Shown here: positions 14,438 through 57,746 of the stretch, in pieces | Layout of the letters: each line of letters opens with the position of its first letter | Numbering within the stretch: position 1 is the stretch's first letter | Translations under genes and position numbers: made by a program | Assembly (NCBI GenBank): GCA_038064735.1 | Contig: JBBTSI010000011.1 | Span: 1,768-65,767, forward strand | Reading direction: 5' to 3' | Origin: Patescibacteria group bacterium | Lineage (GTDB): Bacteria; Patescibacteriota; Minisyncoccia; Phycocordibacterales; WO2-35-19 | Length of the DNA stretch: 64,000 nt | The notes under the pieces: model-generated | Seen by the model: only the letters and a program-made list of their open reading frames with translations | Databases searched by the model: none | Told to the model about the DNA's origin: nothing

Positions 14438-14438
14438 A

Positions 14439-14474
14439 AAACGGCTCAACGAGTAATCCCGTTGAGCCGTTTTA
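14439..14474 (+). terminator. Intrinsic terminator. Its stem is identical to the hairpin at 46102..46134.
   Basis: aacggctcaacg-agtaatc-cgttgagccgtt followed by TTTATT. Confidence 0.55.
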
Positions 14475-16800: not shown

Positions 16801-16893
16801 TTGACTCAGGAGCGCCGCGTTGCAATACGCACCGGCGCTCTTTTTTTTAGCTATTATGCTATAATTGGCGATTATTATATAACTCCTAATTAT

Positions 16894-17790
16894 ATGAAAA
16901 AAACTATAGTCGCGGTCATTGTGGTAATAGCAATTGTCGGTGCCTATTTTTTGGTTAATAATTTATTAAGTAAAAATACTGTAACAACAAGTTTAACTCC
17001 ATCAACCAACGACCAAAATACAACAGCAACCACTACCGAAACTCAAAATCCAGCCCAGTCAGTCATCGGCAAATCCGTTGAAAACCGAGATATAATCGCT
17101 TACAACTATGGTACCGGTGAAAAGAAAATTTTGTTCGTTGGTGGCATCCATGGCGGTTATGAATGGAACACATCAAAAGTTGCTTATGAACTAATAAATT
17201 ATTTGGAAGCAAATCCATCTTTTGTTCCCAATAATATCAAGGTAACAGTTATCCCCGTTTTAAATCCTGACGGTCTTTATAAAATTGTCGGCACCACTAC
17301 TGGAAATTTCACTTCAGCAAACGTCTCATCCAATACAGTACCCGGCCGCTTTAACGCAAACAATGTCGACCTTAACCGCAACTTTGATTGCGATTGGCAA
17401 ACTAATGCTACTTGGCAAAATAAAACTGTCAGTGGAGGAGACTCGGTCTTTTCCGAACCGGAAAGTTTAGCTATAAAAAATTATATAGAAACAAACAAAC
17501 CAAGTGCAGTCGTCGTCTGGTATAGTTCAGCTGGTGGGGTTTACTCTTCAAGTTGTCACAACGGTGTCTCTCCGGAAACCAACACTCTTACCAAAACTTA
17601 TGCGAGTGCTTCTGGTTATCCTGCCTATCAAAGTTTTGATTTCTACGCCACAACAGGCGACATGGTAAACTGGCTAGCCAAAATCAATATCCCAGCGGTG
17701 AGTGTACTTTTGACTAATCATACCGATACTGAATGGACTAAAAACCAAAAAGGCGTCGAGGCCCTGATTAACTATTATTTCAACAAATAA
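16894..17790 (+). CDS. M14-family zinc carboxypeptidase (gamma-D-Glu-DAP peptidase-like), membrane-anchored.
   Basis: N-terminal TM segment, then VGGIHGGYEWNT ... RFNANNVDLNRNFDCDW ... FSEPES. Start was chosen at the internal MKKTIVAVIVV. Confidence 0.7.
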   Translation: MKKTIVAVIVVIAIVGAYFLVNNLLSKNTVTTSLTPSTNDQNTTATTTETQNPAQSVIGKSVENRDIIAYNYGTGEKKILFVGGIHGGYEWNTSKVAYELINYLEANPSFVPNNIKVTVIPVLNPDGLYKIVGTTTGNFTSANVSSNTVPGRFNANNVDLNRNFDCDWQTNATWQNKTVSGGDSVFSEPESLAIKNYIETNKPSAVVVWYSSAGGVYSSSCHNGVSPETNTLTKTYASASGYPAYQSFDFYATTGDMVNWLAKINIPAVSVLLTNHTDTEWTKNQKGVEALINYYFNK

Positions 17791-18665
17791 TGCAGCCTAA
17801 TTTCAAGAAGCCGGCGATAATAATTGCTGTGGTTATTGTTGTGTTTTTAGCATCTTTGTTTTGGGCTATAAGCCACAGACAACCAGAAACACCACCAGTA
17901 ATCGAAGCTCCGAAAGAAGTGGTTTATAAAGTCATCGGTAACTCTGTGGAAGGACGTAAAATTGAAAGTTACACTTATGGGGAAGGGCAGAAGCATCTGG
18001 TATTAGTCGGCGGTGTCCACGGAGGTTACGAATGGAACAGCATAATGCTCTCTTACCGAATGATGGATTACTTGAATAAAAATCAAGATACAATCCCGAA
18101 CAATCTGACAGTCACCATAATACCTAACGTCAATCCTGACGGCCTTTTCAAAGTAGTAGGTAAAGAAGGCCAGTTTGTCGTCGCCGATGTTTCTACTAGT
18201 ACCAAAATACTTTCAGCCGGCCGTTTCAATGCAAACGAGGTTGACCTCAACCGCAACTTTGATTGCAAATGGAAACCGAAAAGTACCTGGCAATCAAAAA
18301 CAGTGAGTGCCGGCTCAGAAGCTTTTTCCGAACCGGAAGCTCTGGCTTTTAAAAATTTTATTTCAGAAAACAATCCGACCGCTGTCATATTTTTCCACAG
18401 CCAGTCGGGCAGTGTTTACGCTTCACAATGCAAAGACGGCATCCTTCCGGAAACTCTGAGTATCATGGATGTTTATGCAAAAGCGGCAGGTTATAAACCA
18501 GTCAAAACATTTGATGCTTATGCCACTTCTGGTGCTGCTGATGACTGGTTAGCCTCCATCAAAATCCCCGCTATCACAGTAGAACTCAAAACTCACGAAA
18601 CCGTAGAGTGGGAACAAAACCTTACCGGTATCAAAGCTCTTTTTGCTTATTTCAACCAAAAATAA
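17790..18665 (+). CDS. M14-family zinc carboxypeptidase, a tandem paralog.
   Basis: VGGVHGGYEWNS ... RFNANEVDLNRNFDCKW ... FSEPEA. Overlaps the upstream gene by 1 nt (TAATG). Confidence 0.7.
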   Translation: MQPNFKKPAIIIAVVIVVFLASLFWAISHRQPETPPVIEAPKEVVYKVIGNSVEGRKIESYTYGEGQKHLVLVGGVHGGYEWNSIMLSYRMMDYLNKNQDTIPNNLTVTIIPNVNPDGLFKVVGKEGQFVVADVSTSTKILSAGRFNANEVDLNRNFDCKWKPKSTWQSKTVSAGSEAFSEPEALAFKNFISENNPTAVIFFHSQSGSVYASQCKDGILPETLSIMDVYAKAAGYKPVKTFDAYATSGAADDWLASIKIPAITVELKTHETVEWEQNLTGIKALFAYFNQK

Positions 18666-26695: not shown

Positions 26696-26729
26696 AAAAC
26701 AAACTCCCTTTCGAAAGGGAGTTTGTTTT
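26696..26729 (+). terminator. Intrinsic terminator.
   Basis: aaacaaactcccttt-cg-aaagggagtttgttt perfect hairpin followed by TA. Confidence 0.5.
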
Positions 26730-35384: not shown

Positions 35385-37526
35385 ATGTTTAGCGATAGAA
35401 AATTTAAAATTAAAAGAGATTTTGAGCCAGCAGGCGACCAACCGCAAGCGATTGAAAAGCTTGTAAATGGTATCAAAACAGGTCTGAAACATCAGACTCT
35501 TTTAGGTGTAACTGGTTCTGGTAAAACCTTCACTGTCGCCAATGTCATAAATGAAATTCAAAAGCCGACTTTGGTCATTGCTCACAACAAAACTTTGGCT
35601 GCCCAGCTCGCCCAAGAGTACAGAGAGTTTTTTCCTCAAAATGCGGTTCATTATTTCGTCTCTTACTACGACTACTATCAACCAGAAGCTTATATGCCAA
35701 TTTCGGATACTTATATAGAGAAAGAAGCGATGATAAATGAAGAGATTGAAAGACTGCGTCATGCTTCCACTCAAGCACTACTTACCCGTAAAGATGTCAT
35801 TATTGTGGCTTCAGTTTCTTGTATTTATGGTCTAGGTTCTCCGATTGAATATGAAAAAGTAAATATGAAAATTGCAAAAGGTGAAAAAATCTCTCGAGCA
35901 GAATTCGTCCGCAAACTTATTGACATTCATTTTGAACGTACCATAGCCGACCTCTCTCCGGGGCAATTCAGAGCCATCGGCAATAAAGTTGAAATTATGC
36001 CCGTTTCGGAAAAAGCTATTTATGAAATCAGTATCGCAGACGGCAAAATTGAAAAAATATTGAAAATAGACGCGATTACCAGAAGTATTTTGGAAGAAGT
36101 GGAAGTATTTTTCCTTTTCCCCGCCAAACATTTCATTTCTACTAAAAAACAAAACGAAAAAGCTTTCAAAACTATCAAAGCCGAGCTCGCACTGCAACTG
36201 AAGAAATTTCAAAAAGAAGGCAAACTTTTGGAAGAAGAACGGCTCAAACGCCGTACCAGTTATGACTTGGCTCTCATCCGCGAGATAGGATATTGCAACG
36301 GTATTGAAAACTATTCCAGACATTTTTCGGGCAAAAAACCTGGTGAAGCACCTGATACTTTACTCTCATATTTTCCCAAAGATTTCTTGACTATCATAGA
36401 TGAGTCCCACGTTTCTGTACCACAAATCGGAGCGATGTATTCCGGAGACGCTTCGCGTAAACAAGCACTGGTAGATTATGGTTTTCGTTTACCAAGTGCC
36501 AAAGATAACCGGCCACTTAAATTTGAAGAATTTGAAGAAAGGGTTGGTCAAGTTATTTATACCAGCGCCACTCCAAGCCATTATGAAGCAGAACACAGTG
36601 AGCAAGTCGTGGAGCAAGTCATCAGACCAACTGGTTTAGTTGATCCAATTGTTGAAGTAAGACCTATTACGGAAAGGAAGATTAGTTCTTCTTCGGCACA
36701 TGTTTCTGAATGCACGGATATTTTCTTGCTAGAAAATTCCTCGTGCTCGGCTCAGTCAGCCTCGCAAGGCATTCATAAACATATACCCTCGAAGAACTTT
36801 TCTGGGCATTACCCTGGTCAAATCGCGGACTTCATAAACGAAGCGGAAAAAAATATAAAAGCTGGTGGCAGAGTCATCGCCACTACGCTGACTAAAAAAA
36901 TGGCCGAAGATTTGAGCGAATACTTGAAAGAAAAAGGTGTCAAAGCTGAATACTTGCACAGTGATATTAAAACCATTGAACGAATTGAAATTTTGACCAA
37001 CTTACGCAAAGGCGAGTTTGATTGTTTAGTTGGAGTCAACCTTTTGCGAGAAGGTCTAGACTTACCTGAAGTAACACTCATCGGGATTTTGGACGCTGAC
37101 AAAGAAGGCTTCCTACGAAGCGACACTTCGCTTATTCAAATCATCGGCCGTGCCGCGCGAAATGTAGATGGCAAAGTTATTTTGTACGCAGACCGGATGA
37201 CCGGTTCAATGGAAAGAGCAATAAGCGAAACTAGCCGCAGACGCGTCAAACAAATCGCTTACAATAAAAAGCACGGTATTACTCCCAAAACTATTATCAA
37301 AAAAATTCAAGACATCACTGACCAACTCAGAAGTGATCATGATAAAGCAGTAGGGGAACTTATCAAAATAGATAAGAATATTTTGATAAAAGAACCTAAA
37401 AAATTAAAGAAACTTATTTCTCAGAAAGAAAAACAAATGGAAGGTGCTGTCAAAATCCTCGACTTTGAAACCGCCGCTCTTTTGCGTGATGAAATTTTGG
37501 AATTACAGAAAATTGGGAAAGTGTGA
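35385..37526 (+). CDS. uvrB: Excinuclease ABC subunit B, carrying a 48-codon in-frame insertion.
   Basis: GDQPQAIEKL, GVTGSGKTFT, helicase motifs, beta-hairpin YYDYYQPEAY, and the C-terminal UVR domain. Confidence 0.9.
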   Translation: MFSDRKFKIKRDFEPAGDQPQAIEKLVNGIKTGLKHQTLLGVTGSGKTFTVANVINEIQKPTLVIAHNKTLAAQLAQEYREFFPQNAVHYFVSYYDYYQPEAYMPISDTYIEKEAMINEEIERLRHASTQALLTRKDVIIVASVSCIYGLGSPIEYEKVNMKIAKGEKISRAEFVRKLIDIHFERTIADLSPGQFRAIGNKVEIMPVSEKAIYEISIADGKIEKILKIDAITRSILEEVEVFFLFPAKHFISTKKQNEKAFKTIKAELALQLKKFQKEGKLLEEERLKRRTSYDLALIREIGYCNGIENYSRHFSGKKPGEAPDTLLSYFPKDFLTIIDESHVSVPQIGAMYSGDASRKQALVDYGFRLPSAKDNRPLKFEEFEERVGQVIYTSATPSHYEAEHSEQVVEQVIRPTGLVDPIVEVRPITERKISSSSAHVSECTDIFLLENSSCSAQSASQGIHKHIPSKNFSGHYPGQIADFINEAEKNIKAGGRVIATTLTKKMAEDLSEYLKEKGVKAEYLHSDIKTIERIEILTNLRKGEFDCLVGVNLLREGLDLPEVTLIGILDADKEGFLRSDTSLIQIIGRAARNVDGKVILYADRMTGSMERAISETSRRRVKQIAYNKKHGITPKTIIKKIQDITDQLRSDHDKAVGELIKIDKNILIKEPKKLKKLISQKEKQMEGAVKILDFETAALLRDEILELQKIGKV
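36672..36815. repeat. In-frame palindromic insertion element (144 nt) within uvrB.
   Basis: Positions 36712-36770 are identical to 40672-40730 in uvrC. The 3' end GAAGAACTTTTCTGGGCA matches the right inverted end of the mnmA element. Excising it restores the canonical UvrB spacing between VEVRPIT and GQIADF. Confidence 0.8.
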
Positions 37527-37603: not shown

Positions 37604-40270
37604 ATGGTTAAAAAAGAAACAACAAAAGAAGATGGAAAATTAATCGTCCGAGGGGCGAGGACACACAACCTTAAGAATATTACAGTTGAGATGCCTCGCA
37701 ATAAGATGATTGCTTTCACGGGACTTTCCGGCTCAGGCAAGTCTTCTTTGGCATTTGATACTATTTTTGCCGAAGGGCAAAGGCGCTATGTGGAGTCGCT
37801 TTCATCTTATGCTCGCCAATTTTTGCGCCAAATGCAAAAACCCGATGTAGATGAAATCGTGGGGCTCAGTCCGGCCATTTCTATTGATCAAAAATCTCGC
37901 TCAAATAATCCACGTTCAACAGTAGCTACTATCACTGAAATATACGATTACCTACGTATACTTTATGCCAGAGTAGGCCACCCGCATTGTTTGGTTTGCG
38001 GTGATGAAATCAAAAAACTTTCAAACGAAGAGATCAAAAATTTTATTTCGGAAAGAATTTCCGAAATTAAAATAAAAAGCGGAAAAAATTCTAATAAAAT
38101 TCAATTGCCGGTTTATGTAGAAATTTTCGCGCCTATCGTGCGTGGCAGGAAAGGCGAATACTATCAATTACTTTATGATCTGCTCGGTAAGGGCTACACT
38201 CATGTTCTTATAGATGGGAAAAAGAAAGCTTTGCGCGAGCAAATTATTTTAACGAAAACCAAAAGACACAATATCGACGTCTTGGTAGACAGTATCAGTA
38301 TGCTCGACTTCATCGGGGATCAAAAAAGCGCCGAAGAAAGGTTGTCGGAAGATTTGGAAAAAGCGCTTGAAGAATCTGAAGGCATGGTCAAAATAATGTT
38401 TAGAGATATGGCGCTCGAAAAAAATAAAGATTATGTGCCAGAAGAAATTTTTATGTCCAATAAACTTTCCTGCCCGAAAGACGGCTATTCATATCCGGAA
38501 GTTGAACCGCGCCTTTTTTCTTTCAACTCACCATATGGCGCTTGCCCTGAATGTAACGGCCTTGGCACTCGCCATTTCTTCGGCGAGGAATCTTGTCCGG
38601 TCTGTAACGGCGCTAGACTCCGACCAGAAGCTTTGCATGTGACTCTTGGCAAGTCGCCTTCGTCAAAGACTTCGGCGGACCAAGGACAAAACATCGTAGA
38701 CCTCACATCAATGTCTATCAAAGACGTTTATGATTTCTTTATTGAACTCAAACTTACCGAAAGGGAAAAAAATATTTCCAAAGTGGTGATGAAAGAAATT
38801 GAATCAAGACTGGAGTTCATGATAAACGTCGGCATTGACTACCTCTCACTTGACCGCAGAGCCCACACTCTCTCGGGTGGTGAAGCTCAGCGCATCCGCC
38901 TAGCCAGCCAACTCGGCTCAGGACTAGTCGGCGCTCTTTATGTGCTTGATGAGCCAACCATCGGCCTCCATTCCCGTGACAATGACCGCTTGGTCAAAAC
39001 TTTGCTCACGCTCCGTGACCTCGGCAATACTATAATAGTGGTGGAACACGACGAAGATACTATCTTTGCTTCGGACTATATCGTTGATATTGGACCAAAG
39101 GCAGGCGTCCATGGCGGTGAAATCGTAGTCTCCGGATATTTGGATGAGCTTCTCACTGCTAAGCAAAACAAATCCGGTTCCGTAACTTTAGATTATTTGC
39201 GTGGAGACAATGTGATAGAAATTCCGGATAAAAGGAGAGGACAAGACAAAGGTTCGCTGCAAATCCGCGGAGGCAAAGTTTTCAATATTAAAAATATGAA
39301 TGTAGATGTACCGCTTGGCAAACTGGTAGCTGTAACCGGTGTTTCCGGTTCGGGCAAATCTTCTTTCGTTTACGAAATTTTGCACAAAAATTTGCAGGCG
39401 CGTTTTGAACGCAAATACCGCAGTGCACAAACTTTCAATTGTGCGTCTTTCACAGGTACAGAATATCTGGGCCGAGCCATTTTGATTGATCAGTCACCGA
39501 TAGGGCGTACGCCGAGGTCCAACCCCGCTACTTATACAGGAAGTTGGACTTTCATCCGCGAACTTTTCGCTGAGACAGCGGAAGCAAGAGCGCGTGGTTG
39601 GAAGGCCAGTCGATTTTCCTTCAACGTAGCAGGCGGGCGCTGTGAAGTTTGCGGTGGTAACGGCGAAATAGAAGTAGAAATGCATTTTTTACCGACCGTT
39701 TATGTGCCTTGCGATGTTTGCCGTGGCAAAAGATTTATGAAAGAAACTTTGGAAGTGAAATACAAAAAGAAAAATATTTACGAAATTTTGGAAATGACAG
39801 TTGAGGAAGCGCTAACCTTTTTTGAAGATATCCCTGCAGTTTATGACAGACTCAAGACGCTCAATGAAGTGGGTCTGGGTTATTTGAAACTCGGACAATC
39901 AGCCACCACCCTTTCCGGTGGGGAAGCACAAAGAGTGAAAATTTCATCGGAGCTTTATCGTCCGCACCTGCAAAAAACTATTTATCTACTTGATGAGCCG
40001 ACCATCGGTCTGCATTATGAAGATGTCAAAAAACTGATAGAAATTTTGCAAAAATTAGTAAACAAGGGAAACACAGTAGTGGTCATTGAACACAATATGG
40101 ATATCATCAAATCCTGCGATTATGTTTTGGATATTGGTCCCGAAGGCGGCGACCTTGGCGGTAACCTCGTCGCCAAAGGCACTCCCGAAGAAATCGCCAA
40201 CAACTCCAAATCTCACACCGGCAAGTATTTAAAGAAAGCATTGAAACAATATGCAGCACATAAAAAATAA
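37604..40270 (+). CDS. uvrA: Excinuclease ABC subunit A (888 aa); the insertion domain appears to be missing.
   Basis: Two ABC modules ([17 protein letters not shown] x2) and Zn modules. CPECNGLG and CPVCNG are only 9 residues apart, against about 125 in E. coli. Confidence 0.9.
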
Positions 40271-41585
40271 AATATCAAAATTGCCGGATGCGCCGGGGGT
40301 GTATTTTTTTCTTCGGGCGCCGAAGCCTAGCGAAGGAGGCAAACCTAAGATTCTTTATATTGGCAAAGCGACTTCGCTAAGAAGTAGGGTGAAGAGTTAT
40401 TTCAATGGAAGAATTGAAGAAACTCGAGGACCGCTGATTTCCAAAATGCTCAGCGAATTTACTGATATTAAATTCCAAAAAACCGATTCGGTTTTGGAAG
40501 CGCTCATTTTGGAAGCTAACCTCATCAAAAAGCACCAGCCCGAAGCCAACACTGACGAAAAAGACGACAAAAGTTTTAATTATGTAGTTATCACTAAAGA
40601 AGATTGGCCGAGAGTTTTAGTTATGCGAGAGAAAGAACTTCGAACTTTTTTTTCACCACATTCTTCGAAAAGCACGGATATTTTCTTGCTAGAAAATTCC
40701 TCGTGCTCGGCTCAGTCAGCCTCGCAAGGCTTTTCTCAGAACGATGGTTCAAAAAAGTTTTCAATCTCTAAAACTTTCGGACCATTTACAAACGGCGCAC
40801 AGCTCAAAGAAGCGATGAAAATCGTCCGCAAGATTTTCCCATTTAGGGATAAATGTGAAATAGGGCAAAAAAGAGCATGTTTCAATCGCCAAATCGGACT
40901 TTGTTCTGGAGTTTGTACTGGTGAAATATCCAAAAAAGATTACGGAAAGCAAATCAAAAATATTGTTTTGTTTTTTGAGGGTAAGAAAAAAGCTTTGATA
41001 AAAAATTTGGAAAAGCAGATGAAAGCATTCTCTAATTCGCGCGAATATGAGAATGCGGGAAAAATAAAAAGGCAGATTTTTGCCCTTTATCATATCCAAG
41101 ATGTCTCACTGATAAAAAGTGAAAATATAATAAATCTAAATTCAAACCAAACATTCAGAATTGAAAGCTACGATATAGCACACCTCTCGGGCACTAATGT
41201 AGTAGGAGCAATGACTGTGGTAGAAAATGGAGAAATTAAAAAAACAGATTACCGCAAATTCAAAATCAGAAGTGCGACAATCGACGACACCAAAGCCCTC
41301 TCTGAAGTTTTAGCTCGTAGATTAAATCATTCCGAATGGCCGATGCCTGATTTAATAGTAGTCGATGGGGGAGAAGCTCAAAAACGAGCCGTAGAAAAAG
41401 TTTTAAAAATCAATTCAAAAAACATTCCGGTCGTCTCTGTCGTTAAAGACGAAAGACATAAACCAAAAGATATTTTAGGAGATAAAAAATGGCTAAAGCA
41501 GGAAACCGAAATACTTCTAGCTAATGCCGAAGCCCACCGCTTTGCCATAAGCTTCCACAGGAATCTCCGTCGAAAGTTGTCTTAA
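40251..41585 (+). CDS. uvrC: Excinuclease ABC subunit C (444 aa), lacking the (HhH)2 tail and carrying an in-frame repeat insertion.
   Basis: GIY-YIG GVYFF ... ILYIGKA, the UVR domain, and an RNase-H-like endonuclease domain. Overlaps the uvrA end by 20 nt. Confidence 0.85.
   Translation: MQHIKNKISKLPDAPGVYFFLRAPKPSEGGKPKILYIGKATSLRSRVKSYFNGRIEETRGPLISKMLSEFTDIKFQKTDSVLEALILEANLIKKHQPEANTDEKDDKSFNYVVITKEDWPRVLVMREKELRTFFSPHSSKSTDIFLLENSSCSAQSASQGFSQNDGSKKFSISKTFGPFTNGAQLKEAMKIVRKIFPFRDKCEIGQKRACFNRQIGLCSGVCTGEISKKDYGKQIKNIVLFFEGKKKALIKNLEKQMKAFSNSREYENAGKIKRQIFALYHIQDVSLIKSENIINLNSNQTFRIESYDIAHLSGTNVVGAMTVVENGEIKKTDYRKFKIRSATIDDTKALSEVLARRLNHSEWPMPDLIVVDGGEAQKRAVEKVLKINSKNIPVVSVVKDERHKPKDILGDKKWLKQETEILLANAEAHRFAISFHRNLRRKLS
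40656..40740. repeat. In-frame palindromic insertion element within uvrC.
   Basis: A 59-nt core identical to the uvrB copy, with ends CGAAAAGC and GCTTTTCT. It encodes PHSSKSTDIFLLENSSCSAQSASQG in the variable linker after the GIY-YIG domain. Confidence 0.75.
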
Positions 41586-44040: not shown

Positions 44041-45045
44041 ATGTCATTAAGTATAGGAATCGTCGGTTTGCCAAACGTGGGGAAATCCACACTCTTTAAC
44101 GCACTTACGAAAAAAAGCGTACCAGCGGAAAATTACCCATTTTGCACCATTGACCCATCAGTAGGTATTATCCCCGTGCCAGACGAAAGACTAGAACGGC
44201 TAAACGCGTTTAGCCGTTCGGCCAAAAAAATCCCCGCCGTAGTGGAATTCGTAGATATCGCCGGACTAGTGCGTGGCGCCTCAAAAGGGGAGGGTAAGGG
44301 CAACCAATTCCTCACAGCTATCAAAGAATGCGATGCTATCGCCGAGGTGGTGCGCGTTTTTGACGACCCGGAAGTTTTACATGTCGAAGGAAAAATTGAT
44401 CCGCTCTCGGATATTGAAACCATAAATCTTGAACTCATTTTGAAAGATATGGAGACGGTGACCAAGCGTCTCGGCAGTTTGGAAAAAGAAGTGAGGGCCG
44501 GAAAGAAAGAAGCTCTGCTTGAAAAAAGCGGTTTGGAGCAAATCTTCAAAGCTTTGGAAGCGGAAAAAATGGCCTCCTCTGTTTTCAACGAGCTGGACGA
44601 ATTCGAAAAACCTTTCGTGAAAAATTTGCAACTCCTGACTATGAAGCCGGTACTTTATGTTTTGAACACTTCCGAAGCTGGTGAAAACAAAGTTGATATA
44701 AAAGAAAGGATTCCTGGACCATACGTTGAAGTAGATCCCATTTTTGAAAAAGGCCTCACTGACCTCATCACCAAAGCTTACGAAACGCTCGACCTCATTA
44801 CTTACTTCACGACCGGCGAGGACGAAACTCGAGGTTGGACTATTCTGAGAGACTCCACTGCACCCGTCGCCGGCATGGCCATCCACACAGACTTCCGCGA
44901 CAAATTCATCCGCGCTGAAGTCATAGAATGGGACAAACTCCTATTAGCTGGCTCTTACGCCACCGCTCGTGAACGTGGCCTCCTCCGCACCGAAGGCAAA
45001 ACTTACATCGTCAAAGACGGGGATGTCATAGAATTCAAAATCTAA
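44041..45045 (+). CDS. ychF: Redox-regulated ATPase YchF (Obg-like).
   Basis: IGIVGLPNVGKSTLFNALT, and the C-terminal TGS domain TEGKTYIVKDGDVIEFKI. Confidence 0.85.
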   Translation: MSLSIGIVGLPNVGKSTLFNALTKKSVPAENYPFCTIDPSVGIIPVPDERLERLNAFSRSAKKIPAVVEFVDIAGLVRGASKGEGKGNQFLTAIKECDAIAEVVRVFDDPEVLHVEGKIDPLSDIETINLELILKDMETVTKRLGSLEKEVRAGKKEALLEKSGLEQIFKALEAEKMASSVFNELDEFEKPFVKNLQLLTMKPVLYVLNTSEAGENKVDIKERIPGPYVEVDPIFEKGLTDLITKAYETLDLITYFTTGEDETRGWTILRDSTAPVAGMAIHTDFRDKFIRAEVIEWDKLLLAGSYATARERGLLRTEGKTYIVKDGDVIEFKI

Positions 45046-46101: not shown

Positions 46102-46134
46102 AAACGGCTCAACGACAACTATCGTTGAGCCGTT
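46102..46134 (+). terminator. Terminator hairpin sharing an identical 12-bp stem with 14439..14474.
   Basis: aacggctcaacg-acaactat-cgttgagccgtt, then CGGGTTTTTGTTG. Confidence 0.5.
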
Positions 46135-52030: not shown

Positions 52031-53239
52031 ATGAAAAAAGTGAATATAATTCATCCTGAGAAAAGTCGAATGGTATTTGTGGGATTATCTGGAGGTGTAG
52101 ACAGCGCTGTAAGTGCCGCTTTACTCAAAAAAGACGGTTTCAATGTGACCGGAGTTTTTATCAAAGCTTGGACTCCCGAGGGTTATCCTTGCACTTGGAA
52201 AGAAGACAGGCGAAGCGCGATGAAAGTAGCGGCTATTTTGGATATTCCTTTTATCACACTTGATTTGGAAAAAGAATACAAAAAAGAAGTAGTGGACTAT
52301 ATGATCGCTGAATACAAAACCGGACGAACACCAAACCCCGATGTGATGTGTAACAAAGAAATCAAGTTTGGTCATTTCTTAAAATTCGCCCTAAAAAATG
52401 GTGCCAATTTCGTAGCCACGGGACACTACGCACAAATATCACACTCAAAGTTGCCCAGAAAAGTTCTCGAGAAAAGTCTGGCCTGTGCAACAAGGAGACC
52501 CGAGGACTTTTCAGAGAGAAGCTTTTCTGGGCAACTTTTAGAAGGAAAAGACAAAAATAAAGACCAGAGTTATTTTTTATGGACTCTTACTCAAGAACAA
52601 CTTAAACATATTTTATTTCCAATTGGTGGTTTACAAAAATCTGAAGTCAGAAAACTGGCAGACAAATTTGGTTTGCCTCAAGCTACTCGCAAAGATAGCC
52701 AAGGACTCTGTTTTCTCGGCAAAGTGGATATGAAAGAATTTTTGTCACGTTATATGCCACCCCAAAAAGGAAACGTAATAAACGAAAATGAGGAAATTAT
52801 CGGCACACATAACGGCGCTTTATTTTTTACTATCGGTGAACGCCATGGCTTCACCATCACCAAAAAATCTGAAAAAGAAGAACCTCTATATGTTACCGCT
52901 AAAAATATTGAAAAAAATACCATCATGGTTGCTTCCATCGCCAGAAAAAAATTGCCCCTGAAAAAGTCCTCGGGTCTCCTCGCTGAAGCTCGGCCAGACT
53001 TTTCCATTGACAATTTTCTTTCTGGCTGCAGTTCTGTGTTTTTAAAAGATATAAATATTACAGAGAAAATACCAAACAAAAACCTGACTTGCCGTATCAG
53101 ATACAGACAAGAAAAAATCGGATGTAAAATGGATAGAGATAAAGTAACTTTTAACAAATCCCAAATGGGAGTGGCTCCAGGCCAATCTCTAGTTTTATAT
53201 CAAGATGAAGTTTGTTTAGGTGGTGGTATAATAAAATAA
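52031..53239 (+). CDS. mnmA: tRNA-specific 2-thiouridylase MnmA, carrying two in-frame repeat insertions.
   Basis: PP-loop GLSGGVDSAV, TGRTPNPDVMCNKEIKF, KDQSYFLW, and C-terminal PGQSLVLYQDEVCLGGGII. Confidence 0.85.
   Translation: MKKVNIIHPEKSRMVFVGLSGGVDSAVSAALLKKDGFNVTGVFIKAWTPEGYPCTWKEDRRSAMKVAAILDIPFITLDLEKEYKKEVVDYMIAEYKTGRTPNPDVMCNKEIKFGHFLKFALKNGANFVATGHYAQISHSKLPRKVLEKSLACATRRPEDFSERSFSGQLLEGKDKNKDQSYFLWTLTQEQLKHILFPIGGLQKSEVRKLADKFGLPQATRKDSQGLCFLGKVDMKEFLSRYMPPQKGNVINENEEIIGTHNGALFFTIGERHGFTITKKSEKEEPLYVTAKNIEKNTIMVASIARKKLPLKKSSGLLAEARPDFSIDNFLSGCSSVFLKDINITEKIPNKNLTCRIRYRQEKIGCKMDRDKVTFNKSQMGVAPGQSLVLYQDEVCLGGGIIK
52451..52534. repeat. 84-nt palindromic element with 13-bp terminal inverted repeats, inserted in frame in mnmA.
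   Basis: TTGCCCAGAAAAG ... CTTTTCTGGGCAA flank a nested inner palindrome GAAAAGTC ... GACTTTTC. It encodes LPRKVLEKSLACATRRPEDFSERSFSGQ. Excision restores E. coli-like spacing between GHY and LLEGKDKNKDQSYF. Confidence 0.8.
52951..53004. repeat. 54-nt truncated copy of the same element in inverted orientation, also in frame in mnmA.
   Basis: Its reverse complement aligns with the inner part of 52451..52534, sharing GAAAAGTCTGGCC ... GGAGACCCGAGGACTTTT. Confidence 0.7.
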
Positions 53240-56120: not shown

Positions 56121-57746
56121 ATGACCTCAAACGAAATCAGAAAAAAATATTTGGAATTTTTTGAGAGCAAAGGACACAAAATAATCCCGAGCGCTTCCTT
56201 AATTCCTGAAAATGACCCAACGGTGCTTTTCACTACAGCCGGTATGCACCCGCTCGTGCCTTTTCTTTTGGGAGAAAAACATCCAGCAGGACAGAGACTG
56301 ACCAATATTCAAAAATGCATCCGCACTGGCGACATTGATGAAGTAGGGGATGACACTCACCTCACTTTTTTTGAAATGCTCGGTAATTGGTCACTAGGAG
56401 ATTATTGGAAAAAAGAATCGATAACTTGGAGTTTTGAATTTTTGACTCAAGAATTAAAGATAGATTTAGAAAGAATTTCTGTAACTTGTTTTGCAGGAGA
56501 TGAAACTGTACCGAGAGATAATGAATCTGCAGAAATTTGGAAATCACTTGGTATCTCAGAAGAAAAAATAAAATTTTTAGGCAGAGAAGACAACTGGTGG
56601 GGACCAGCAGGAGAAACAGGACCATGCGGACCGGACACCGAAATCTTCGTTGATGGTGTGGAAATTTGGAACAACGTCTTCATGGAATATAACAAAACCA
56701 AAGACGGTGCTTACGAACCACTCGTACAAAAAAATGTGGATACAGGCATGGGACTTGAAAGAACGCTGATGATTTTAAACGGTCAAAAAAATGTTTTCGA
56801 AACAGATTTGTTTGAAGGGTTACTTAAAGACAATAGTAGAGAATCAAAAATTGTTGCCGACCATATCAAAGCTGCTGTCTTCATTTTGTCTGAAGGAATT
56901 GAGCCATCCAACACAGGAGCTGGTTATGTTTTGCGCCGTCTGATTCGTCGCGCGGTCCGTTATAGTAAAGATTTGGATTTAACCAAACTTGCCGAAAAAA
57001 TTATTGAAATTTATAAAGATATTTATCCTGAACTTTTGAAAAATAAAGAAAAGATTTTGGATGAATTAAAAAAAGAAAAAGAAAAATTCGAAAAAACTTT
57101 GGAAAGCGGAATGAAAGAATTTGAAAAGGGGACTGATCCATTTGTTCTTTTCACTTCTTATGGTTTTCCTTTTGAACTTACAAAAGAGCTGGCAAAGGAA
57201 AAAGGAATAGAGATAGATGAAAATAAATTTAATGAAGAATTGAAGAAACACCAAGAACTCTCCCGCACTGCAAGCAGCGGGATGTTCAAAGGCGGGCTTT
57301 CGGATAGTGGGGAAGAGACCAAGAAACTGCACACAGCCACACACCTGCTCCGCAGAGCTCTCGAAGTTATACTTGGCGAATCGATAATGCAGAAGGGTAG
57401 TAATATCACAGCCGAAAGACTTAGGTTTGATTTCAATTGGTCAGAAAAAATCTCAGAAGAACAATTAAAAAAAGTTGAGGATTTGGTTAATGAAAAAATA
57501 AAAGAAGAAATTCCAGTAGAAATGCTTGAATTACCAAAAGAAGAAGCTCTGAAAGTTGTCGGCACACTCTCTTTTGATTTATCAAAATACGGAGATGTTG
57601 TAAAAGTTTATAAAATTGGGGATTTCAGTGCCGAATTTTGCGGAGGTCCGCACGTCACCAACACTTCCGAGCTCGGCAAATTCAAAATCATCAAAGAAGA
57701 AGCCGTCTCCGCCGGCGTCCGCCGAATAAAAGCAATATTGGAATAG
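56121..57746 (+). CDS. alaS: Alanine--tRNA ligase, compact form (541 aa: catalytic plus editing domains, no C-Ala domain).
   Basis: Class II core FTTAGMHPLVPF ... WWGPAGETGPCGPDTEIF, and editing-domain HTATHLL ... CGGPHV. Confidence 0.85.
   Translation: MTSNEIRKKYLEFFESKGHKIIPSASLIPENDPTVLFTTAGMHPLVPFLLGEKHPAGQRLTNIQKCIRTGDIDEVGDDTHLTFFEMLGNWSLGDYWKKESITWSFEFLTQELKIDLERISVTCFAGDETVPRDNESAEIWKSLGISEEKIKFLGREDNWWGPAGETGPCGPDTEIFVDGVEIWNNVFMEYNKTKDGAYEPLVQKNVDTGMGLERTLMILNGQKNVFETDLFEGLLKDNSRESKIVADHIKAAVFILSEGIEPSNTGAGYVLRRLIRRAVRYSKDLDLTKLAEKIIEIYKDIYPELLKNKEKILDELKKEKEKFEKTLESGMKEFEKGTDPFVLFTSYGFPFELTKELAKEKGIEIDENKFNEELKKHQELSRTASSGMFKGGLSDSGEETKKLHTATHLLRRALEVILGESIMQKGSNITAERLRFDFNWSEKISEEQLKKVEDLVNEKIKEEIPVEMLELPKEEALKVVGTLSFDLSKYGDVVKVYKIGDFSAEFCGGPHVTNTSELGKFKIIKEEAVSAGVRRIKAILE

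Follow-up and report, generated by a model that had tools for sequence, protein, structure and literature searches.

The window analysed in this study is a stretch of 64,000 nucleotides (nt) from a Patescibacteria group bacterium (contig JBBTSI010000011.1); it is AT-rich, with 38% G+C, and its uvrC gene carries an in-frame palindromic element. The element very probably belongs to a family of non-autonomous palindromic repeats that behave like the Rickettsia palindromic elements (RPEs), with the uvrC copy a tolerated, translated passenger in a disordered loop of the protein. This interpretation is carried by the anatomy of the element, its insertion relative to empty alleles, its dispersal in many copies, the covariation of its paired bases, its survival in genes only in frame, its occurrence in both orientations and its decay products. 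The host gene and the parts of the element, in window coordinates, are as follows:

40251-41585, plus strand: uvrC open reading frame (ORF), 444 aa, a short Patescibacteria-type UvrC that hosts the element.
40653-40748, plus strand: in-frame insertion of 96 nt (32 codons, S135-G166) relative to insert-free homologues.
40642-40672, plus strand: left arm, the 5' strand of the closing stem P1, containing CGAAAAGC (40666-40673), placed from the inverted repeat and the minimum-free-energy structure.
40673-40729, plus strand: conserved 57-nt core (core A), CACGGATATTTTCTTGCTAGAAAATTCCTCGTGCTCGGCTCAGTCAGCCTCGCAAGG, identical in the uvrB gene of the window and in loci L110 and L123 from other metagenome-assembled genomes (MAGs).
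40676-40700, plus strand: core hairpin 1 (P2), GGA-U-AUUUUCU / AGAAAAU-UCC with the loop UGCU.
40704-40726, plus strand: core hairpin 2 (P3), UGC..GGCU / AGCC..GCA with the loop CAGUC.
40730-40760, plus strand: right arm, the 3' strand of P1; G40729 together with 40730-40736 makes up GCTTTTCT.

The arms form a 31-nt imperfect inverted repeat (40643-40673 and 40729-40759), and folding of positions 40636-40766 produced an interrupted stem of ~119 nt (40642-40760) capped by a three-way junction. The folding energy was -36 kcal/mol (z-score -4.4) for the sense strand and -46 kcal/mol (z-score -6.2) for the complementary strand. The inverted repeat, the fold z-scores, an exact 59-nt repeat in uvrB and a score of 87.9 bits (E about 6e-21) all exceed chance; the score was obtained with covariance model R1, which represents the core, its hairpins P2 and P3 and the complementary stem P1 that closes them, and which gives rough E-values. 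The initial annotation had taken the octamers CGAAAAGC and GCTTTTCT for the inverted termini of an element at 40656-40740. GCTTTTCT was located at 40729-40736 as described and CGAAAAGC at 40666-40673, two bases away from 40664-40671 where it had been placed, and both are the innermost 7-8 bp of an arm of ~31 nt in which pairing continues for ~24 nt further out. By itself, the octamer pair is weak evidence for an element. Pairs of GAAAAG and CTTTTC at a spacing of 30-140 nt occurred five times in the window against 0.7 times in shuffled sequences (maximum 4), and two of the five (70-168 and 57048-57152) were unstructured, with fold z-scores of -0.5 and +1.7.

Comparison with homologues identified the element as an insertion. 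The UvrC of the window is 100% identical to P0001, a MAG protein named 'GIY-YIG nuclease family protein [Patescibacteria group bacterium]'; its relatives are Parcubacteria-type proteins of 403-491 aa, and the Pfam domains GIY-YIG, UvrC_M and UvrC_RNaseH_dom are present in the homologues. The region from PRVLxxR to FGPF measures 180 nt in the window and 84 nt in the insert-free L005, and the corresponding linker is 49 aa long against 13-20 aa in most of the 112 homologues. The catalytic GIY-YIG residues presumably end near N100, as judged by homology with T. maritima UvrC, and the UVR-like helices begin near residue 228, so that 'GIY-YIG/UVR linker' is a fair wording for the site. The 32 codons in excess of L005 and its protein P0006, situated before the FGPF/UVR part, agree with the in-frame repeat that the initial annotation had proposed in this linker, and the peptide PHSSKSTDIFLLENSSCSAQSASQGFSQ that it had read there is found in the uvrC translation. 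The element was, however, inserted into the linker and did not replace it as had been supposed, and the insertion spans 40653-40748 rather than 40656-40740; as the palindrome includes the flanks, the ends of the insertion are fixed only to within a few bases. AlphaFold2 with the homologue alignment (mean predicted local distance difference test score, pLDDT, 71.7) assigned values under 50 to residues 135-168 and left them devoid of secondary structure, between strand 122-126 with helix 127-134 on one side and strand 171-179 on the other; the insert is thus predicted to be a disordered 32-residue loop. An example of a tryptic peptide that spans the insert is STDIFLLENSSCSAQSASQGFSQNDGSK.

The nearest relative of the uvrC copy was found two genes upstream, in a gene row consisting of uvrB (35385-37526), uvrA (37604-40270) and uvrC (40251-41585):

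36675-36809, plus strand: uvrB sibling element in the ORF 35385-37526, with its core at 36713-36769 and its model hit at 36691-36791 (93.1 bits).

This copy has the orientation and reading frame of the uvrC copy (xTDIFLLENSSCSAQSASQG). Positions 40672-40730 of uvrC recur exactly, over 59 nt, at 36712-36770 of uvrB, and similarity extends to 88 nt at 89%. The insertion in uvrB amounts to 42-43 codons, with boundaries taken from the UvrB proteins of L001 and L063, and its fold z-score was -4.8 on the plus strand and -7.9 on the minus strand. The inner stem reads GAATGC/GCATTC in the uvrB copy and GAAAAGC/GCTTTTC in the uvrC copy; the octamers CGAAAAGC and GCTTTTCT are therefore not conserved ends. 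The UvrB of L001 (2607-4787) carries a different repeat-like insert of 45 residues, ASPLTEKKEITHPNPSLTLIEGRENLESGSPLKVRGARGVMKKEG, at the site that core A occupies in the window.

Copies in other genomes were collected by scanning a degenerate 30-nt hairpin 1 pattern over one genome per species. At least 117 stretches were obtained, with several copies per genome (for example at least nine in bin-744). Among the matches listed, all but two short contigs were labelled as Patescibacteria lineages or unclassified MAGs; the lineages comprised Zambryski-, Nomura-, Taylor-, Lloyd- and Wildermuthbacteria, Paceibacterota, Minisyncoccia and MAGs labelled Saccharibacteria, with MAG taxonomy labels as deposited. 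The loci fetched for analysis (L numbers) are 8-kb blocks picked for holding a copy, and copy densities are biased for this reason. Model R1 produced 134 hits in 0.7 Mb of fetched loci, and in the window it recovered two copies only, those in uvrB and uvrC. Across 127 copies, the core measured 56-57 nt and the arms 12-46 nt, the latter often being perfectly complementary over 25-30 bp. Searches of Rfam 15 with the whole window (E<=1) returned a single match, a tRNA, and no family for the element, and a search with 40620-40780 (E<=10) returned noise only, with no score above 17.7 bits where the gathering scores are 38-90. No description of the element was found in the searchable literature on palindromic or MITE-type (miniature inverted-repeat transposable element) repeats and RNA motifs in Patescibacteria (CPR, Parcubacteria), and the core-A repeat family does not seem to have been described.

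The secondary structure is maintained across copies. In an alignment of 90 copies, 86.1% of the cells were paired, compared with 63.0+-0.5% in shuffled alignments (0/500) and 40-54% when the partner strand was slid. The covariation score was 0.534 against 0.139, and double changes were observed in 31 of 40 pairs. All four Watson-Crick pair types were common in the arms, and G:U pairs were nearly absent. The hairpin 1 pair at columns 35/42 switches from C-G to U-A (44:41), and hairpin 2 showed covariation in all seven of its pairs. Mean pairwise identity was 95% at the core positions that the search pattern fixes, 74.5% in the remainder of the core, 45% in the proximal arms and 30% in the distal arms; the last value was judged to be near random for such AT-rich DNA, and the distal arms were nevertheless 79% paired within copies. 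The core is nearly identical between genomes whose UvrC proteins share about 65-70% identity.

Some copies record rearrangements. Two copies on one contig of bin-744 (L045 986-1085 and L081 5003-5102) have identical arms and ~60 nt of identical flanks and differ in three compensatory pairs of hairpin 2 (CGCGCCAGTCGCGC and CGGCTCAGTCAGCC), a pattern that suggests module exchange or gene conversion between copies and not stepwise mutation. Extra sequences of 10-85 nt, often G+C-rich palindromes, lie within hairpin 2 of other copies (L092 2097-2237, L021 551-732, L027 7648-7760, L057 and L080); such extra sequences in the core hairpins are nested insertions into hairpin loops.

The positions of intergenic copies raise the possibility of a role for the host. 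Seventy-one of the 80 intergenic copies (89%) adjoin a gene 3' end, often 3-20 nt past the stop codon. In the orientation of the element (E), the arrangement of neighbouring genes was ->E-> in 33 copies, ->E<- in 23 (convergent gaps, enriched at 29%), <-E<- in 15 and <-E-> in nine (divergent gaps, rare at 11%), and the upstream gene reads into the element in 56 cases versus 24. In long arms, the outer ends run from A-rich to T-rich 13 times and never the reverse, much as in the long terminator hairpins with an A-run and a T-run that this genome contains (for example 14438-14473 and 26696-26729). These features, together with the near-identity of the core across divergent genomes, would fit a cis element, RNA or DNA, that the host uses as the apex of long terminator or 3' untranslated region (UTR) hairpins in termination, mRNA stabilisation or factor binding, with the coding copies as by-products. 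We consider such a role possible but not probable. A run of four or more T follows the arms directly in just eight of 87 copies, and the asymmetry of arm mismatches in the copy alignment (A.C 97, G.U 39) favours folding of the strand complementary to the sense transcript. That strand, complementary to CACGGA.. and antisense to the mRNA in uvrB and uvrC, folds better by 10 kcal/mol. The near absence of G:U pairs is unlike typical structured RNAs, antisense and intragenic copies exist, and Rfam holds no such family. The uvrC copy itself cannot act as a terminator because it is located inside a gene. A host-used element concerns the role of the family and is compatible with an RPE-like repeat; the uvrC segment would still be a copy of it. 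A further hairpin, AAACGGCTCAACG..CGTTGAGCCGTT(TT), occurs three times in the window (14439-14471, 44186-44218 and 46102-46134; 67-100% identity) and looks like a shared terminator or a small repeat.

The initial annotation had joined the uvrC copy to the elements in mnmA as one family with related ends:

52445-52528, plus strand: mnmA element 1, an 84-nt in-frame insertion with an inverted repeat at 52444-52541 and core B.
52945-53030 (approximate), plus strand: mnmA element 2, with core B, in the orientation opposite to element 1.

Such a family would be a small MITE bounded by the 8-bp inverted termini CGAAAAGC/GCTTTTCT and akin to the mnmA elements with CAGAAAAG/CTTTTCTG. Both octamers are indeed present, 20 of 21 positions agree between the distal right arm in uvrB (CTCGAAGAACTTTTCTGGGCA) and the terminus of mnmA element 1, and core-A elements occupy the two mnmA sites in other genomes (site 1 in L036, site 2 in L116). 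An outer-stem and asymmetric-loop layout, ..TTCTTTCTC.. against ..TCGA(A/C)GA.., is also common by eye to the uvrB, uvrC and core-B arms. The octamers, however, belong to the innermost stem and are exchanged for GAATGC/GCATTC in uvrB, and GAAAAG/CTTTTC pairs also arise by chance in AT-rich DNA. The mnmA elements, which are inverted copies of each other, lack core A and scored 17 and 12 bits with model R1, the level of ordinary terminator hairpins. They carry another core, core B (GTCCTCGGGTC[G/T]CC..CCAGAC), which was also found in L004 (263-351), L068 (~3168), L115 (~3318) and L123 (~5800); the L004 copy is inside uvrA and is 83% identical to mnmA element 1, arms included. Across the window, the pattern CAGAAAAG-N-CTTTTCTG and its relaxed forms, suggested as a check, detected mnmA element 1 only, and the hexamer form also returned the chance pairs 70-168 and 57048-57152, which lack a fold.

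A MITE with 8-bp ends is hence unlikely, and the claim is largely refuted as to termini. At the level of the family, the element is about 100-130 nt long, multi-copy and devoid of a transposase ORF of its own, as MITEs are, and sequence-conserved terminal inverted repeats are lacking, arm motifs being common to some subfamilies only. As for a single family of all copies, what stood was the arm architecture and the 20/21 arm motif between mnmA element 1 and uvrB; what failed was the core, absent from mnmA, and the motif that links the uvrC and uvrB copies to mnmA differs from the octamer pair flagged for it. The kin named for the uvrC copy were thereby only partly correct, with the closest one, in uvrB, left out. 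Different cores with a shared arm layout make the core-A and core-B elements at most a modular superfamily with interchangeable cores, and not one family. The arms of core-B elements likewise differ from copy to copy, and these elements lie in frame in mnmA and uvrA and are also found between genes; by eye core B resembles core A minus hairpin 1 (TCCTCG.G.TCGC..GCTC).

The uvrC site in relatives bears on whether the peptide or the DNA is maintained. Alignment of the linker, which the initial annotation had proposed as a check, showed that relatives either are free of an insert, carry this element in one orientation or the other, or have different repeats that can be recognised as such; an equally long linker of unrelated sequence and without a repeat signature was not encountered among them. 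The element was present in the same orientation in 14 of the 112 homologues, in three sequence subtypes, and reverse-complemented at the same site in two (P0007/L002 and P0085). With one of the two reversed, L002 and L004 share 91% identity across 120 nt, asymmetric arm features included. Identity of the element between the window and L006 is 94%, whereas the flanking, strongly constrained uvrC DNA shares 72-79%, with only 46-63% at third codon positions. Compensatory changes in hairpin 2, GGCT/AGCC in the window, GCCT/AGGC in L003 and L006 and GCGC/GCGC in L001, turn the peptide SAQSAS into SPQSGS. Taken together, the identity in excess of the flanks and the compensatory changes that alter residues indicate a constraint on nucleic acid and not on peptide; the nucleotide sequence and structure of the element are conserved, and the encoded peptide is not. 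The element therefore behaves either as selfish RPE-like DNA or as a nucleic-acid module recognised by a putative factor. Decay products were seen at the same site: solo left arms in L124/P0008 (GAAAAACTTTTTTTCGATACATCCTTC, with host codons directly after) and in P0062 (EKFFSPTHS|FGPF) are in-frame deletion derivatives of the element. The right arm was tandemly duplicated by 27 nt in L004 and by 15 nt in L003, the element of P0030 has a nested insert in the hairpin 1 loop (WSRPKASAP), and unrelated repeat peptides such as NNSPPLAALGPSLKLREGKGRV occupy the site in other homologues. That the extra 32 residues form a functional extension of the UvrC linker, with the peptide itself under maintenance, is accordingly very improbable. 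The insert is kept, always in frame, in at least 16 of the 112 close homologues, but the two reversed copies encode an unrelated peptide (EPSSRENPREERRRRTEENFSKNFPWFSRD), most homologues have no insert and the insert is predicted to be disordered. Furthermore, the same DNA lies in many unrelated proteins and between genes, and its compensatory changes alter residues.

About 20 copies, or about 15-25%, are inside genes. Their hosts are SecA, Dus (two sites, in both orientations), UvrB (two sites), a UvrD/AddA-like helicase-nuclease, RNase R, Tgt, Fmt, RecG, ComEC, MnmA (two sites) and UvrC. Hand translation showed four of the six core frames to be stop-free, and three or four are used over both orientations: TDIFLL[EK]NSSCS in sense, and ..EEFSSKKISV.. 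and GASTRNFLAKKYPCS in antisense. Another class of frame, HGYFFAKKFLVLAPS, is located where ORFs begin and probably represents 5' UTR. Every intragenic copy is stop-free, and no gene-splitting copy was found among the copies. The sole candidate for an ORF broken by a copy, L079, turned out to be two separate genes. In all cases that allowed a clean alignment with an empty allele, the extra length was a multiple of three (96, 105, 126-129 and 120 nt). The element is thus an in-frame palindromic repeat in many unrelated genes, stop-free throughout, with about 80 intergenic copies in addition. Removal of the element before the protein is made, as an intron, an intein or by translational bypass, is hardly credible despite a very stable mRNA structure (-36 kcal/mol), given that a multiple-of-three constraint would be pointless under excision, that intragenic copies are all stop-free and never split a gene, that no ribozyme or intron family matched and that the element is far too short for an intein.

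If the element is an RPE-like repeat, as is very probable, its unit is a core of 56-57 nt folding, as single-stranded DNA or RNA, into a three-way junction with the hairpin 1 loop UUGC(UA) and the hairpin 2 loop C(A)GUC, on a long closing stem whose mutually complementary arms vary from copy to copy. The family is widespread in Patescibacteria (Parcubacteria/Paceibacteria lineages). Copies would build up where they are least harmful, mostly just 3' of stop codons, with arms resembling A-run/T-run terminators; coding copies would survive only where the inserted length is divisible by three, reading runs through any of the four frames free of stops and the site is a permissive surface loop. The uvrC copy would have landed in the post-GIY-YIG linker and would now encode the disordered 32-residue loop.

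Several observations weigh against this interpretation. When 498 neighbouring ORFs within 2.5 kb around copies were clustered, no transposase or recombinase was enriched and only housekeeping genes recurred, and the uvrC, uvrB and mnmA sites showed no recognisable target-site duplication; the flanks ..CTCGC| and |(A)CTCG.. at some intergenic copies may be a duplication or part of the element. Mobility is consequently deduced from the distribution of copies, and translation of the 32-residue insert and any mechanism of spread are likewise presumed. All uvrC copies occupy one site, for which reason a single old insertion followed by losses and inversions, instead of repeated hits, may account for them. 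Core conservation is partly a matter of ascertainment, since the search pattern fixes 30 of the 57 core bases, and where it is strong it could mean a host function that the word 'selfish' leaves unexplained.

Ordinary MITE biology leaves unexplained how distal arms that are unrelated between copies and complementary within them surround a constant centre; loop targeting or fold-back growth would explain it. We tentatively propose, as a speculation that may well prove wrong, that mobility or function truly resides in the 57-nt core plus ~10 bp of proximal stem, which a putative conserved factor would recognise in folded, single-stranded form, and that the outer arms do not travel with this unit but arise locally. 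The unit might target long terminator hairpins that already exist and insert into their apical loops, or the palindrome might grow outward by fold-back (template-switch) copying of one flank. Hints of a local origin are the distal arms, near-random between copies yet 79% paired, their terminator-like A..T polarity, the interchangeability of cores A and B in similar arms (uvrB versus mnmA), the hairpin 2 swap between L045 and L081 and the inversion of the whole element at the uvrC site. Filled and empty alleles of Dus, UvrB and MnmA, compared for signs of a host origin of the outer arms, differed in highly variable regions with boundaries ambiguous by several codons. If this proposal is true, the element would be a hairpin-loop-targeting or self-extending one with no known enzyme, kept phylum-wide and able to remodel essential proteins.

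Further features were noted in the host gene and elsewhere in the window. The uvrC frame has its first ATG within uvrA, 20 nt before that gene ends (40251-40270), which is consistent with translational coupling within the uvrB-uvrA-uvrC row. A second short G+C-rich insert at 40312-40350 (UvrC residues ~22-32, RAPKPSEGGKP) sits between VYFFL and KILYIGKA; homologues have related peptides at this N-terminal spot (LGTSKRGEGGK, LRSLGEGGK, PKRSGGG..) or nothing. It contains a near-palindrome, CTTCGGGCGCCGAAG, that folds no better than shuffles (z-score +0.35). Other insertion hot spots of UvrC are found after FRDKC.P (PSPSQGEGQG.., PSLGEGVGG), after DYRKF (SAKGGSAFGGKT..) and at the N-terminus (NPTSLKLRG..), and the recurring peptides at these spots point to several further in-frame repeat families in these genomes. 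Apart from uvrC, the adjacent ORFs 16801-17790 and 17790-18665 share 73-77% DNA identity between segments 17342-17511 and 18217-18386 at a spacing of 875 nt, and are a tandem gene duplication.

To our knowledge, in-frame coding palindromes have so far been essentially confined to Rickettsia and a few organelles. RPEs, reportedly described by Ogata et al. (2000, Science 290:347; 2002, Genome Res 12:808), do not form an Rfam family. The same behaviour in Patescibacteria, a reduced, host-dependent and very different lineage in which the element lies in secA, recG, uvrB, uvrC and mnmA, suggests that selfish hairpin DNA has this effect generally wherever genomes are small and gene-dense. Such elements may inflate and diversify protein lengths in MAGs of the candidate phyla radiation (CPR), confuse homology-based annotation and account for many recurring odd peptides in these proteomes. 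With hundreds of independent copies and a sharply conserved core, spread and recognition could be approached by phylogenetic profiling and biochemistry.

Comparison with known repeats places the element closest in behaviour to RPEs. REP/BIME sequences are extragenic 3'-end palindromes of 20-40 nt associated with a RAYT transposase gene, and insertion sequences of the IS1397 type insert in REP loops. The core-A element shares the 3'-end position, and insertion into a hairpin loop could explain copy-specific outer arms round a constant centre; RAYT is paired with REPs, however, whereas no such gene was found within 2.5 kb of core-A copies, and loop targeting is only hypothetical here. SPRITE of pneumococcus and Correia/NEMIS of Neisseria are small non-autonomous hairpin repeats that are co-transcribed and located at gene 3' ends, some being terminator-like. 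The likeness extends to size, hairpin formation, lack of autonomy and 3'-end location. Correia elements differ in their conserved 26-bp terminal inverted repeats and TA target duplication, neither of which is seen in the core-A element, and in-frame coding copies are not a hallmark of these families. ERIC/IRU of Enterobacteriaceae is an imperfect palindrome of ~127 bp, most conserved centrally, in gene-adjacent transcribed regions in either orientation and occasionally intragenic. The core-A element resembles it in all these respects, without sequence relation; ERIC arms are conserved in sequence, ERIC has no three-way-junction core and the taxon is another one. Mitochondrial genes of Nematomorpha contain long inverted repeats in frame with both arms translated (PMC6649704), a likeness in so far as protein-coding genes are concerned, but those repeats are mitochondrial, have perfect arms of up to 284 bp and lack a shared core and dispersed intergenic members (PMC6649704).

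The comparison with RPEs, like that with ERIC and Correia elements, is based on descriptions (PMC10969869 and general knowledge) and not on sequence. RPEs are hairpin-forming repeats that occur in frame in many unrelated Rickettsia housekeeping genes, where they are translated, and also between genes (PMC10969869). The present element differs in its host phylum, Patescibacteria instead of Rickettsia, and is likened by behaviour, with no membership claimed. It also differs in that conservation is confined to the 57-nt three-way-junction core at its centre, with arms that bear no relation from one copy to the next, that only about 15-25% of core-A copies are in genes, and that RPEs are described as encoding conserved peptides whereas core A uses three or four frames. 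Both are hairpin-forming repeats of about 100-150 bp that occur between genes and in frame in unrelated housekeeping genes, where they add extra peptides considered fold-compatible; both lack a transposase and any known means of spreading, and in both cases several families coexist in reduced genomes.

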